Shown here piece by piece: positions 5,214 to 12,516 of a stretch of DNA of 64,000 nucleotides. How positions within the stretch are numbered: the stretch's first letter is position 1; the number at the start of each line of letters is the position of its first letter. The notes below the pieces were generated by a model. The model was not told where the DNA came from and did no database searches. It worked only from the letters and a program-made list of their open reading frames with translations. Source of the stretch: Agathobacter sp. (GTDB lineage Bacteria; Bacillota; Clostridia; Lachnospirales; Lachnospiraceae); the NCBI GenBank assembly GCA_036308125.1, contig JAXJWH010000136.1, forward strand, positions 23,499 through 87,498. The letters run 5' to 3'. Made by a program: the position numbers and the translations under genes.

Positions 5214-5243
5214 AAAAAAAAGCCTGCTAATGCAGACTTTTTT
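5214..5243. terminator. Probable terminator at the end of fibre operon 1
   Basis: A-run, imperfect 7-bp stem (agcctgc/gcagact, one mismatch), 4-nt loop and T-run. It overlaps the stop codon of the 5227-5697 ORF. The stem is weak. Confidence 0.4.
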
Positions 5244-5697
5244 GTGTAATATCATCTTCAATTTCAAATTTTCTTGGACTCATGTCTATAGAAATATTCT
5301 CCGGATATCTTTCGTGTGCCTCTAAAATAGTAAGCCACAAAGAATGTATACTATAAATTAACATATTAGATGCTTCCACTGAAAAATTCAATAATGCCTC
5401 TAATTCGAATACTCTTATTCCAAGCGGAGGAAGAAATACTAAATTGTTGCTTTTCTCCTCTTCACCATTACTGTGTATCATCTCATAAGTAATAATCAGA
5501 AATTCTTTTCCTTTAAATGTACAATTGTATGATACAAATACCTCATCTACCACCCACTTTGTTCCGTCTTCTTCTACGGTAACTTTCTCTTCATTATACT
5601 CAGATGTCTGTCCAATTATCTTCCATGACAATTTTCCTAACTTTGTTTCTTTAATCATTTCCTGAAGATCTCTTTGTAATTCTTCTTCTTTCTTCAT
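5227..5697 (-). CDS. Hypothetical protein, no signal peptide; last gene of fibre operon 1
   Basis: 156-aa ORF, 27 nt downstream of the peptidase-sortase fusion gene. No family recognised by eye. Confidence 0.5.
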   Translation of the reverse strand: MKKEEELQRDLQEMIKETKLGKLSWKIIGQTSEYNEEKVTVEEDGTKWVVDEVFVSYNCTFKGKEFLIITYEMIHSNGEEEKSNNLVFLPPLGIRVFELEALLNFSVEASNMLIYSIHSLWLTILEAHERYPENISIDMSPRKFEIEDDITQKSLH

Positions 5698-5724
5698 TCC
5701 CCTTCTCCTTACCTGTCTATTATA

Positions 5725-9541: not shown

Positions 9542-9545
9542 AACT

Positions 9546-12443
9546 TTACTTTACAAATTTATTAACCAAATTAGTTGTATCTGCAAGCCATTCCTTGGCT
9601 CTGTTCAAATTATTTGTATATTTTACATCCTGATGTGCGTATTGAACACCATCATCTTTTATTCCCAAATATACAATTCCATCTGAAGACTTCTCATAAG
9701 AATCTTCAACTGATTCTAAAATGTATTTCCAAGACCAGCTTGTTTCCTCTACAACCTTATATTTACCAGCTCTCATTCCTGCAATAGTTCTTGAACCATC
9801 TCCGGTTATAACCAACTCATACTCTTCTATTGGTTCTAATTTACCTGATAAAATATCCTTATCATTAGCATCTTCTTCATATCTGTATACTGTATATATA
9901 ACAGACTGTCTTGCATCTACAGCTCCCTTTTCCTCGTCTGTATATCCAATGTTATCCAAAAACTCTGCATCAAAATGCTTTGTTATTGTAATCTCACCGT
10001 CTATTACATGAACAATATATTTTCCAACTTTACAAACTCCATCATCAGAACCCTTGTCATATCCTGACTGCATTGTAGCTGTATACAATATTTTGTCAGC
10101 ATTTTTCATCGATTCTGCTGCCATTTGTGCTTCACTGCTGCTGTCTAAAACCTTTGGTATAACATGAATATTTAATTCATATACTGTATCTTCCTCAGGA
10201 GCCTGCTGTCTTACATATTTTTTAAACTCCTTTAAAGAACCATATACCTCTTTACTTCCATTGTTCCAGCTATACTTTACGTTAACATCTGAAACATCAT
10301 AATTTCCTATGTCAAAAATCTGTTTTGCTTTTTCATCAGTAAAATACTTCTCCAAACTTTGACCAAGGAAAATAGTGTCTGTCACCTCTTCAGGTGTATA
10401 ATTAATTCTTACATTAACTCTTTTTTCATCAAATCTGTATAATTCATCCTTGATAATGGCACCAGAATCTTTACCATTGGTAGTTATATAATTTCCTCCC
10501 ATGTAATTATCCTTAGCCCTGATTGGAAAAGTTACTTTCCAGTTATCAAGATTAACATGTTTCCATTTTACAAAAACACCCTTATCATCACGGCCTACTG
10601 TTCCGCCTAATTTTTCAATATCCTGCTCACTACATAATTCAAATCGATTATCAATATAATCAATTACATCTCCGTTTTCTGTTTTCGACTCAATAACTGT
10701 CCCCGATGAAGATTCTTTGGTTATCTTTGCATCAACAAATAACGTAATGTTGTAAGTTCTATTTGTCCATGACTTTAATTTTACCTGTTTGTCCAATGAT
10801 ACCTGTGGTGTTTTGGGTGTATTGTATATTATATTATCCTCTAACACATTTCCTTTGCTGTCTGTAATAACAACTGTAAGGGTTTCTTTTGAATTTCCTG
10901 CTACCTGAATAATGTATATCTCGTCTGACTCTTCATATCCAAGCGGAACATCCGTTTCTTTCAGGTAATAAGTTCCCGTTTTTAAATTCTTAAATGTAAC
11001 TTTACCATTCTCATCTGAGTACTGTTTATCAAGAACATTCGTGCAATTATAATCTGAATATAAAGTAAATCCAGCGTTTGCAAGCAATGACTCATCATTT
11101 ATGCTCTTTTTGGTAAAAGTAACATCTGTATCCAAATCGTTATTAACTGTAGGCATATTAAATTTAATCTTACAATTTGATACACTCGCTCCTCTTTCAA
11201 GGTAAAATACTTCCAACCTATGTATATCATTGTCACATACATTAAGACCTAAACTTGAAAAAGACACAGTTCTTCCAGGTGCATATATAGTGCCATTTTT
11301 GTTCACTGAACAGCTATATGAAACCGTCTGGCTGGCAAAGTTTATAGTTCCTCCACAAGCTGCATGAATTCCACCTAAATCCAATGCAAGTTTGCCATCT
11401 ATGAATACCCAGACATCATCATCGCCAGAGAATTCAAATACGCAGTCCTTGCCATTATATTGTCCATTTTCAGGCATCAAAAAATCTACTGCAACATCCA
11501 TACCGAACCAGAAATTTTTCTCACCAAGTGGAAAGAAACCTTTGGTTCCGGTATTGGATGCCACAATATGATTTCCATTTTTTGAATAACTATATTTATC
11601 ACTATCTAAAACATAATACCCATCTTCGTAAACAAAATCCACATCCATGTCAGGAAATACAATCTTGTTTGAAGAATCGCCAACATTAAATAAATCTACT
11701 GTATTTACATTAAATTGCGGAATACCATTTAACAAATTATCCTTTACAAGTCCCTGATAAGCTGTTGGCTTTCCACCTCGTCTTGAATTATTATTATTGT
11801 AATCAGTTGCAGCAGTTCTTGTATAATCTGTGCTTCTGATACTGTATGTTTCTTCTTTCTCAACAGTTTTTGTTACTTTTTCTATTTTCGTATGAATTTT
11901 CTCATCTGCTTCTTCAGTATCATCTGCAGATTCTGTGGTTGCCTCTGTTGGTTCTTCCTTTTCCACATTCTCAGCTTCCATATCTGCAGTTTTAGTAGAA
12001 ACTTCCGTTGAAGCTGCAGTTTCAGTAACCGCCTCAGTAGAAGACTCAGCAAAATTTTCCTCAACAGATTCTTTTTCTTCCACCAATATCTCTTCTTCAA
12101 TCTGTTTTGGAACTTTAATAGTGTAGCTGGCGCTTGTATTACCAACTTTTCCTGCGTTATTAAAAAGTAATGCAGGATATAACTCTTGCAATTCTTCTAC
12201 AGATAATTGATTATCAACATTTGATTTCATTATTTTATCTGCAACCAGTTTTAAAGTTGCAGTATTCATCGTGTCTCTGTCATAATCAAAAAGGTTTGCC
12301 TTAAATGTGGTTATCGTGTCATTTTCCTTGACATTATCTTTAACAGTTTCCGTAGCATATACATTCGTTACGCCGAAACTAATAAAGACAGATGCACACA
12401 TCATTAAGGAAACAATTCTTTTTTTCATCTTCTTTAATAACAT
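9546..12443 (-). CDS. Large secreted adhesin-like protein: acidic linker, PA14/fibro-slime-like module, Cna-B/SpaA-like module, no recognisable anchor
   Basis: Start moved to the second ATG (MLLKKMKK), because GAGGAGG lies 6 nt upstream and falls inside the longer ORF. Signal peptide ends in VYA-TE. Motifs: GDDDVWVFIDGKLALDLGG and GKVTFKNLKTGTYYLKETDVPLGYE. The C-terminus ends in NKFVK with no TM segment and no LPXTG. Confidence 0.7.
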   Translation of the reverse strand: MLLKKMKKRIVSLMMCASVFISFGVTNVYATETVKDNVKENDTITTFKANLFDYDRDTMNTATLKLVADKIMKSNVDNQLSVEELQELYPALLFNNAGKVGNTSASYTIKVPKQIEEEILVEEKESVEENFAESSTEAVTETAASTEVSTKTADMEAENVEKEEPTEATTESADDTEEADEKIHTKIEKVTKTVEKEETYSIRSTDYTRTAATDYNNNNSRRGGKPTAYQGLVKDNLLNGIPQFNVNTVDLFNVGDSSNKIVFPDMDVDFVYEDGYYVLDSDKYSYSKNGNHIVASNTGTKGFFPLGEKNFWFGMDVAVDFLMPENGQYNGKDCVFEFSGDDDVWVFIDGKLALDLGGIHAACGGTINFASQTVSYSCSVNKNGTIYAPGRTVSFSSLGLNVCDNDIHRLEVFYLERGASVSNCKIKFNMPTVNNDLDTDVTFTKKSINDESLLANAGFTLYSDYNCTNVLDKQYSDENGKVTFKNLKTGTYYLKETDVPLGYEESDEIYIIQVAGNSKETLTVVITDSKGNVLEDNIIYNTPKTPQVSLDKQVKLKSWTNRTYNITLFVDAKITKESSSGTVIESKTENGDVIDYIDNRFELCSEQDIEKLGGTVGRDDKGVFVKWKHVNLDNWKVTFPIRAKDNYMGGNYITTNGKDSGAIIKDELYRFDEKRVNVRINYTPEEVTDTIFLGQSLEKYFTDEKAKQIFDIGNYDVSDVNVKYSWNNGSKEVYGSLKEFKKYVRQQAPEEDTVYELNIHVIPKVLDSSSEAQMAAESMKNADKILYTATMQSGYDKGSDDGVCKVGKYIVHVIDGEITITKHFDAEFLDNIGYTDEEKGAVDARQSVIYTVYRYEEDANDKDILSGKLEPIEEYELVITGDGSRTIAGMRAGKYKVVEETSWSWKYILESVEDSYEKSSDGIVYLGIKDDGVQYAHQDVKYTNNLNRAKEWLADTTNLVNKFVK

Positions 12444-12516
12444 CTTTTTCCTCCTCATAAATATTCTGATTATTAAACATCCAGTTTATTTTTCTAATAC
12501 AATATATCAATTTAGT

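Follow-up and report, generated by a model that had tools for sequence, protein, structure and literature searches.

A candidate donor-strand fibre of the BsaA/TasA type, with a predicted sortase-anchored base, in an Agathobacter species

What kind of surface structure is specified by a gene cluster that brings together TasA-like subunits, signal peptidases, a sortase and a large adhesin? Such a cluster is found in a stretch of 64,000 nucleotides (nt) of Agathobacter sp. contig JAXJWH010000136.1, called the window here. Seven tightly packed open reading frames (ORFs) lie at positions 5227-12458 on the minus strand, as do all other features whose coordinates are given below, and are spaced by 4, -31 (an overlap), 13, 15, 10 and 27 nt. 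A sequence-only reading, which had described these ORFs and their spacings correctly, proposed that the operon combines the logic of TasA fibres with that of sortase pili and may build a fibre by a route of its own. With moderate confidence, the locus is assigned here to another arrangement, namely an extracellular fibre of the BsaA/TasA type that is polymerised by donor strands and not by sortase, has an adhesin with a donor-like tail at its tip, and is anchored by sortase at its base.

The operon encodes three TasA/BsaA-like subunits of 214 amino acids (aa; 8400-9044), 267 aa (7583-8386) and 203 aa (6956-7567). A fourth, of 238 aa (17497-18213), is encoded upstream of it and is tied to all other TasA-like ORFs by iterated hidden Markov model (HMM) searches. 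The signal peptides carry the motifs GGTLAYFTD (203 aa), GGTMAYFTD (267 aa), SGTLAYLT (214 aa) and GGTMA|TKSDY (238 aa), the last two displaying the same G-T-[LM]-A motif. The SipW-cognate signal model TIGR04088 is matched by the 267-aa protein with 26.3 bits and by the 203-aa protein with 29.3 bits (cutoff 19). The 203-aa protein also passes the Peptidase_M73/camelysin model PF12389 with 27.7 bits (cutoff 22.5), so that the expected match to TasA/camelysin models holds for this subunit, and the homologues of the 267-aa protein include PF12389 proteins (E 1e-13).

The mature N-terminus of the subunits, extracted with the help of hmmalign, follows the pattern Y-[F/L]-T-D-x5/6-N-x-F and has a conserved h-x-N-x-F core. 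It corresponds to YLTFKTNGLHNIFK in the 214-aa protein (8913-8954), YFTDETSEVENIIT in the 267-aa protein (8267-8308) and the donor region YFTDTDEQKSEIVA in the 203-aa protein (7451-7492); the donor region of the 238-aa protein lacks the Asn-x-Phe core. In BsaA of Clostridium perfringens, monomers are joined by exchange of a donor strand (residues 28-38), in which V33 and F37 become buried within the adjoining monomer and N35 is joined to K74 by an isopeptide bond, giving an Asn-Lys lock (PMC11580942). An AlphaFold2 (AF2) model of the mature 267-aa subunit has a predicted local distance difference test score (pLDDT) of 82 overall and of 24-30 in the first 20 residues, which are the donor region; the donor residues 28-38 of the BsaA monomer are reported to behave in the same way (PMC11580942). 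Candidate isopeptide columns, identified in an alignment that did not include BsaA, are N37, E50 and K70 of the 267-aa protein and N41, E54 and K68 of the 214-aa protein. The Asn column is absent from the 203-aa subunit, which has Glu in its place, and from the 238-aa subunit. Such Asn-less subunits may not be covalently lockable, or the lack of Asn may mark the order of subunits in the fibre.

No C-terminal hydrophobic segment, basic tail or sorting signal was found in any of the four small subunits or in the adhesin, in agreement with what had been read from the sequence. The only sortase encoded in the window is of class B and occurs as part of a fusion protein of 406 aa (5725-6945). Residues 9-154 of the fusion (6466-6945) match the SipW-type peptidase model TIGR02228 with 76 bits (cutoff 51.85) and display the motifs TSSMEP, SHRV and KGDGN, and residues 166-391 (sortase part, 5728-6465) match the class B sortase model TIGR03064 with 156.8 bits (cutoff 153.75). 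A free SipW-type (endoplasmic reticulum/archaeal-type) signal peptidase I of 175 aa is encoded at 9014-9541; it has two membrane helices, matches TIGR02228 with 93.4 bits against the same cutoff, and carries the motifs SGSMEP, THRV and KGDAN. All the motifs of SipW-type signals and of S26B peptidases that had been quoted earlier are indeed present. In an alignment of 14 fusion homologues, S37, H78 and D95 of the peptidase, whose catalytic roles we take to be those of the equivalent residues of Bacillus subtilis SipW, and H293, C387 and R393 of the sortase are invariant. Hydropathy analysis places three helices at about residues 1-30, 125-156 and 163-189, and both catalytic domains should thus face the outside of the cell.

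The joining of peptidase and sortase in one chain, already noticed in the sequence-only reading, is genuine. A search of 5.8 billion proteins gave 1547 hits. More than 100 of the top 120 are clusters that share 33-44% identity with the 406-aa protein over 95% or more of its length. The possibility that the 406-aa ORF is a frameshift or sequencing artefact was rejected on account of these full-length homologues. The few named homologues are found in Lachnobacterium bovis, Blautia and Pseudobutyrivibrio, where they are annotated just as "class B sortase" or "signal peptidase I". The conservation of the fusion across so many sequence clusters argues for a functional coupling of its peptidase and sortase. 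Literature searches for a SipW–sortase fusion or for SipW systems in Lachnospiraceae returned nothing relevant.

A signal peptidase module physically fused to a class B sortase invites the hybrid route that had been proposed, in which the sortase domain would polymerise or cross-link subunits or adhesin through a non-canonical site, with the fused peptidase as a helper. There is a precedent in Streptococcus pyogenes, whose pili, according to two reports, need a class B sortase together with SipA (PMC4049620, PMC3019223), and the C-terminal ...SNPTSGGKLIYQN of the 214-aa subunit loosely recalls an NPxTx motif. This route is nevertheless very improbable. The four subunits and the adhesin have none of the C-terminal elements of sortase substrates; no class C sortase is encoded; the catalytic Ser, His and Asp are kept in both peptidase domains, unlike in the inactive SipA; a proper sorting signal sits on another, co-occurring protein of 589 aa; and BsaA and TasA polymerise without any sortase. 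The NPTSGG stretch in SNPTSGGKLIYQN was considered as a cryptic sortase B motif and rejected: it is not followed by a helix, and NPTSG is not conserved in the orthologues from loci L020 and L010 of the survey described below. The sortase-pilus part of the earlier proposal is therefore not upheld as far as polymerisation is concerned.

The adhesin gene (9546-12458) is the first of the operon. Its longest ORF has 970 aa, but an AGGAGG box 6 nt before the second ATG and the public gene calls, which give 965 aa, indicate that the protein probably starts at 12443 and has the length of 965 aa assumed earlier. The protein has a canonical signal peptide, an acidic linker and C-terminal Cna-B-like domains. 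Residues 315-435 match the fibro-slime model TIGR02148 with 59 bits (cutoff 45; fibro-slime/PA14 module, 11154-11516), and residues 445-534 match the SpaA model PF17802 with 61 bits (cutoff 23.1; 10857-11126). With these matches and those to TIGR02228, sortase B and TIGR04088, hmmscan bears out the gene families that had been proposed for the operon.

The adhesin had been taken to lack any means of attachment. Its last Cna-B-like strand, VKYTNN, is followed by a donor-strand-like tail, WLADTTNLVNKFVK (9549-9590), the conserved form of which (WLADTTNLVNKF) matches the N-terminal donor strand of the subunits in reciprocal profile searches. The C-terminal 415 aa of the adhesin have homologues in 297 representative clusters at 50% identity. 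These fall into two groups, ending either with an LPxTG-type signal or with a short tail after a V-x-F/Y-x-N strand, and those that end with LPxTG lack the tail. Among the best 150 of the 297 representatives, 29 have a sorting signal and 121 do not. A strict motif, [W..][L/F][S/G]D-x5-N-x-[F..], was found among the final 45 residues, in most cases right at the end, in 77 of the 121 unsorted homologues, and a looser form in another 22 (consensus W-L-S-D-T-A-A-A-V-N-x-F). Other C-termini show the strict motif in 4 of 1450 cases, three of the four being unlabelled homologues of the adhesin. The tail keeps the h-x-N-x-F core, its conserved positions corresponding to V33, N35 and F37 of BsaA.

When the profiles were exchanged, an HMM of the donor strand ranked adhesin tails first, second and fifth among 1461 C-termini. 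When an HMM built only from 67 tails was run against 1626 N-termini, of which 9% belong to TasA-like proteins, 14 of the first 20 ranks went to such proteins, and its match in them begins exactly after the Ala of the signal peptide, i.e. at the mature N-terminus. The Mann-Whitney p value of 6e-26 is not a true probability, the sequences being related to each other. No NCBIfam model covers the tail, and nothing on it was found in the literature searched.

Other roles of the tail can be envisaged. It might be a strand of the adhesin's own final domain, or a tag for export, processing or wall binding, and the adhesin would then be free or non-specifically bound. The motif is short, the profile scores are low (at most 11.7 bits), and the spacing from the aromatic residue to the Asn is one residue off that of most donor strands. 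An intradomain strand sits poorly with the fact that the tail follows a final Cna-B-like strand (V-x-F/Y-x-N) that is already complete. Replacement of the tail by an LPxTG signal in the sorted homologues, the presence of TasA-like neighbours for 30 of the 31 tail-bearing adhesins in the loci, and the selection by each profile of the other's termini from about 1500 controls, in exact register with the mature N-terminus, also speak for a donor strand. Such other roles are thus possible but doubtful. A count of TasA-like neighbours for the sorted adhesins was not used, being biased by the 9-kb distance limit and the length of the adhesin genes, about 4.6 kb.

A candidate for the base of the fibre lies 3 kb upstream of the seven-gene region, where the 238-aa gene is accompanied by one for a protein of 589 aa (15713-17482); the regulator gene and two serine dehydratase genes lie between. 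The 589-aa protein has no Pfam or NCBIfam match. It consists of a TasA-like domain that would be a sortase substrate (residues 24-215) and a membrane-anchored protein (residues 248-589), and an iterated HMM search showed that each half has a gene of its own in 11 loci and that the fused form occurs in the window, L010 and L020. There are about 20 clusters of fused homologues, all full-length, unannotated and without Pfam domains, and a frameshift artefact was therefore rejected here as well. Unfused members of the N-terminal family have 240-308 aa, a canonical signal peptide and, near the C-terminus, NPLTGD, APKTGD, NPVTGD, NPQTGD or VKTGD, after which a hydrophobic helix and a K/R tail complete the protein. 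In the 589-aa protein the corresponding element is internal (16742-16837): EVKT|SD at residues 216-221 is followed by a hydrophobic helix, KKKN and a second signal-anchor, with hydrophobic segments at residues 220-247 and 247-267. V217, T219 and D221 are invariant in 21 fused homologues. EVKTSD is the sole sorting-signal-like element found among the proteins of the window, and the locus thus has a candidate sortase substrate, contrary to what had been supposed. SrtB of Clostridioides difficile cleaves (S/P)PxTG signals (PMC4155245), which the [P/V]xT[G/S]D class of motifs resembles in sequence.

The domain that precedes this motif (16838-17413), which has a canonical signal peptide and no donor-strand motif, appears to be a TasA-like jelly roll. 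Comparison of its profile with that of the TasA-like subunits by hhalign gave a probability of 96.6% and an E value of 5e-10. Its AF2 model (pLDDT 69) has as its first and second matches in the PDB the TasA fibre 8AUR (prob 0.96, E 7e-3) and the TasA monomer 5OF2. No hit above chance level came from profile searches of the PDB that started from the TasA-like alignment, the sorted-domain alignment or the C-terminal half of the 589-aa protein. In L067 and L074, a sortase B gene is immediately preceded by one for a TasA-like protein of 571 aa ending with PTKTGD and a helix. Beside LPXTG pilus genes in L128, L130 and L151-L160, with no TasA-like genes nearby, there are also proteins of 526-550 aa with SVKTGD and a helix at their end, showing that the xVKTGD motif occurs outside the TasA-like basal family as well. 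The literature searched contained nothing on a sorted TasA-like family with such a motif.

The association of these genes was surveyed by classifying the ORFs around matches to the fusion (80 genome loci) and around matches to the C-terminal region of the adhesin (80 metagenome loci). TasA-like genes are present nearby in 12 of 12 fusion loci and a sorted TasA-like gene in 10 of 12, against 4 of 65 and 2 of 65, respectively, for loci with a stand-alone sortase B. The co-occurrence for which a neighbourhood survey had been recommended is strong. A member of the 238-aa family always adjoins the sorted subunit, and the order 238-aa family, sorted subunit, membrane protein is kept in L001-L010, L012 and L105, and likewise in L020, where the 238-aa copy is cut by the end of the contig.

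Four layouts can be distinguished. In that of the window, the order is adhesin, SipW, three subunits, fusion and 156-aa gene. L020 shows complete synteny; L010 agrees in order as far as its contig goes, but this breaks off in a stand-alone sortase B gene, and neither the fusion nor the 156-aa gene is seen there. In Pseudobutyrivibrio and Blautia (L001-L009), the TasA-like genes and the fusion come after a canonical LPXTG pilus cluster with two sortases of about 300 aa, from which it follows that an LPXTG pilus and a TasA-like system can coexist. In the Agathobacter layout, only the regulator, SipW, sortase B and the 156-aa gene are still adjacent. In high-G+C gut contigs (L099-L148) there is no sortase.

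Some further details of these layouts were observed. The operon of L099-L148, which are human-gut metagenome contigs, consists of SipW, three subunits, an adhesin of about 910 aa with the tail ...NWLTSLAKALNVW..., one more subunit and a 435-aa relative of the basal domain in which both the sorting signal and the helix are missing. The donor-strand Asn is kept by orthologues of the 203-aa subunit in L010, L014 and L027. In several Agathobacter genomes the flank is without TasA-like genes, or these are found about 7 kb from it (L012), a pattern suggestive of a reduced or rearranged system. In L001-L009 and L083-L131, the TasA-like genes come after a complete LPXTG pilus cluster (adhesin, pilin and two sortases of about 290-300 aa), and a secreted protein of 330-356 aa encoded there just upstream of the first TasA-like gene ends with G-G-x-x-V-x-N-x-F, which may be another donor-like tail. 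Loci of the Pseudobutyrivibrio/Blautia type could encode one composite fibre or two separate ones.

The components can be arranged in a model of assembly. The four subunits (214, 267, 203 and 238 aa) would be exported by means of their SipW-type signals and cut by the free SipW or by the SipW domain of the fusion. Cleavage would free the N-terminal strand (Y-F/L-T-D...h-x-N-x-F), which would insert into the next subunit. The adhesin, predicted to be a donor only, would fill the acceptor groove left empty at the distal end of the fibre and thus form the tip. The basal TasA-like domain, having no donor strand of its own, would cap the donor end of the fibre, and this end should be the membrane-proximal one because new subunits would be tethered there by their uncleaved signal peptides. 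Finally, the sortase B domain would cut the basal domain at VKT|SD and link it to peptidoglycan, thereby forming the base. The polarity inferred in this way appears self-consistent and would parallel the tip-shaft-base logic of sortase pili with no polymerising sortase.

Several observations weigh against this donor-strand model. The scores of the four small proteins (214, 267, 203 and 238 aa) with the BsaA family model TIGR04090 are 49, 30, 31 and 36 bits, all below the cutoff of 60; the value for the 238-aa protein is 35.6 bits with E 8e-9. In the Foldseek comparison with TasA that had been suggested, the 267-aa model has 8AUR as its fifth match (E 0.044), below cohesins and generic jelly rolls, and the first-ranked match of the basal domain to TasA is itself weak (E 7e-3, template modelling (TM) score 0.35). 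The sorting motif of the window has Ser where most homologues have Gly, and its internal position before a second membrane segment is unusual for a sortase substrate. To these may be added the one-residue difference in spacing between tail and donor strands. Three loci with the fusion, L014, L017 and L027 (in L027 as adjacent SipW and sortase B genes), have no sorted subunit in the retrieved DNA. Conversely, L083-L131 have a sorted TasA-like gene and SipW but no sortase B within reach, only two sortases of about 290 aa, and the pairing of sorted subunit and sortase B is therefore not obligatory. Last, deletion of the adjacent srtB in C. perfringens strain 13 left BsaA polymers unchanged (PMC7395162).

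The last three points agree with a matrix that is released or tethered to the membrane, as is that of BsaA in C. perfringens strain 13, whose oligomers are released by sodium dodecyl sulphate (SDS) and are not wall-linked (PMC7395162, PMC11580942). The sortase would then serve substrates other than the fibre, either the 589-aa protein as a surface protein in its own right or products of genes elsewhere, and the fusion would amount to co-expression of envelope enzymes. Such a matrix is unlikely in view of the concentration of the sorted gene at fusion loci, and the sorted protein is itself TasA-like and always beside another TasA-like gene. Its operon shares its upstream repeat with the adhesin operon, and the wide conservation of the fusion argues for functional coupling.

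A bolder form of the donor-strand model can be considered. The locus could specify a third kind of Gram-positive pilus, widespread in gut Clostridia, that is assembled by donor strands, locked by self-catalysed Asn-Lys bonds including one at the tail joint, and held by a TasA-like base anchored by a sortase B that is fused to the very peptidase freeing the donor strands. In this form the basal joint may be non-covalent, because conservation of the acceptor Lys does not extend to the basal family. Were it true, the adhesin would be connected to the wall by a chain whose shaft joints are covalent, with no polymerising sortase. At present this is a speculative and rather improbable extension.

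The two parts of the locus may be under common control. The repeat that had been noticed in the promoter region of the adhesin gene, TGTGACCAATATGTGAC (12517-12533), is an exact TGTGAC-N5-TGTGAC that is situated directly upstream of a promoter-like site, TTGATA-16-TAAACT, and 59 nt from the first adhesin ATG. A second copy, TGTGACATCTATGTGAC (18263-18279), in which the two hexamers have the same 11-nt period, lies 50 nt upstream of the 238-aa gene. One copy thus precedes each of the two operons; these two are the only exact copies in the 64-kb window, and none was found in 100 shuffles. Among 11 further copies in 2.3 Mb of related loci, nine are located 53-161 nt upstream of adhesin or TasA-like genes (L010, L020, L027, L082 and L105).

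A SARP-like regulator gene (14345-15559) is the last of the upstream operon, which comprises the 238-aa, 589-aa and regulator genes and ends at a terminator-like hairpin (14311-14342; a 14-pair stem followed by a T-run). The protein matches PF00486 (winged-helix Trans_reg_C) and PF03704 (BTAD; 72 bits). Its C-terminal GGDEF-like domain gives a weak match to PF00990 (19 bits, below the Pfam cutoff of 23.8) and may be a degenerate nucleotide sensor and not an active cyclase. Binding sites of SARP regulators are typically direct repeats with an 11-nt period beside the -35 region. Homologues of the regulator adjoin such operons in L010, L011, L012, L020, L082, L083 and L105, and this activator would be the likely reader of TGTGAC-N5-TGTGAC at both operons. 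The regulator gene is separated from the adhesin operon by a pair of L-serine dehydratase genes, beta and alpha (221 and 291 aa; SDH_beta and SDH_alpha; 12621-14181). The pair looks inserted, since the regulator directly precedes the adhesin gene in L020 and L010.

The closest known system is the bsa locus of C. perfringens, in which srtB is adjacent to sipW-bsaA-bsaB-bsaC (Obana 2020, PMC7395162). In both loci several TasA-like paralogues come after a SipW, a large accessory protein is secreted, a class B sortase is encoded beside or in the operon, and the donor strand has an h-x-N-x-F core. They differ in that the sortase here is fused in frame to a second SipW, and that the sorted subunit has [P/V]xT[G/S]D instead of LPXTG and is fused to a membrane protein. 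The accessory protein here is a fibro-slime/SpaA adhesin with a donor-like tail, not a von Willebrand A protein like BsaC, and no dependence on type IV pili is evident. The bsa operon is reportedly regulated by the two-component pair BsaS/BsaR, whereas the regulator here is SARP-like. In most C. perfringens strains one BsaB paralogue carries an LPXTG motif, and it has been speculated that SrtB anchors it (PMC11580942). BsaA/TasA genes often share operons with LPxTG, SpaA, signal peptidase and sortase genes and occur as several paralogues (PMC11580942, the 2024/25 preprint of Kivimaki).

It follows from the last observation that the general combination of genes is not new. No paper on such a system in Lachnospiraceae was found in the literature searched. 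What is new here is the SipW–sortase B fusion family of Lachnospiraceae, the sorted TasA-like basal subunit and the donor-strand-like tail of the adhesin; the locus does not represent a categorically new machine.

The tapA-sipW-tasA operon of B. subtilis and the sipW-tasA-calY/CapP system of B. cereus share with the present locus TasA subunits processed by SipW and complemented by donor strands (PDB 8AUR), as well as an accessory protein that nucleates or anchors the fibre. Their anchoring is explicitly independent of sortase and non-covalent, and they have no SpaA/fibro-slime adhesin. TapA supplies a complementing strand to TasA (PMC10151520), and CapP is wall-associated (PMC13082335). The strand of TapA belongs to its N-terminal region, whereas the complementing peptide is predicted here at the C-terminus of the 965-aa adhesin.

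Sortase pili of the SpaA type and of the FCT region of S. pyogenes resemble the predicted fibre in their layout of a SpaA/Cna-B tip adhesin, a shaft and a sortase-linked base, and those of S. pyogenes also in the pairing of a protein of the signal peptidase family with a class B sortase. The shaft subunits here are without sorting signals or pilin-motif logic, there is no class C sortase, and polymerisation is predicted to occur by strand exchange and not by transpeptidation. SipA of S. pyogenes lacks catalytic activity, whereas both peptidase domains here look active from their sequences. Donor-strand complementation also holds together chaperone-usher pili and archaeal TasA-like filaments (bundling pili and cannulae), and chaperone-usher pili have a dedicated tip adhesin and a terminator subunit, as predicted here. 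There is neither chaperone nor usher in the present locus. Chaperone-usher adhesins are strand acceptors, whereas the present adhesin is predicted to be a donor, and in contrast to both kinds of filament a sortase is predicted to attach the base to the wall.

Fibres of the TasA type are a major biofilm scaffold, yet the field has settled neither their attachment to the cell nor their way of carrying cargo: TapA and CapP help without forming covalent bonds, and the sortase link in C. perfringens is so far speculation. The present family of loci offers testable answers in its sorted TasA-like base, in a fusion that would couple the release of donor strands to anchoring, and in a portable adhesin tail. 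The tail is present in about 100 protein clusters at 50% identity, many of them proteins of 1000-2000 aa from human-gut and rumen Clostridia, and may explain the display of many "anchor-less" adhesins of abundant commensals (Lachnospiraceae and the high-G+C gut contigs of the fourth layout). Together with its acceptor groove it is a possible tag for protein ligation or display.

The last gene of the adhesin operon (5227-5697) encodes the conserved cytoplasmic protein of 156 aa. It is co-transcribed downstream of the sortase and has no signal peptide and no membrane helix according to hydropathy; in 11 further loci, which represent several genera, a homologue immediately follows a sortase B gene. 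The protein has no credible match in Pfam (up to E = 5), NCBIfam or PADLOC, and a PDB profile search gave chance-level hits only. Its stop codon is overlapped by an intrinsic terminator (5214-5239), the hairpin and T-tract of which had been recognised earlier; it folds with -14.9 kcal/mol (z = -5.0), and none of 200 shuffles folds as well. An Rfam scan of the whole 64-kb window found no RNA family, riboswitches and tRNA included.

The locus occupies a conserved chromosomal position after uppP and greA (window 18329-20370, compared with L011, L023 and L030 of Agathobacter). Directly upstream of it, within 20711-30279, are two large hybrid histidine kinase-like ORFs (892 and 944 aa, judged from their translations), followed by a chemotaxis cluster of methyl-accepting, CheW-like and CheA-like proteins. 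A secreted alpha-amylase/pullulanase-like enzyme of 1109 aa is encoded directly downstream of the fibre operon (1681-5010) and a second amylase at 61472-63241. The organism may be a starch degrader, and its fibro-slime adhesin may target polysaccharide particles. All genes inspected in the window (1-64000) are on the minus strand and the GC skew is negative throughout; a bump in G+C content at 40-42 kb corresponds to the gene for pyruvate phosphate dikinase.

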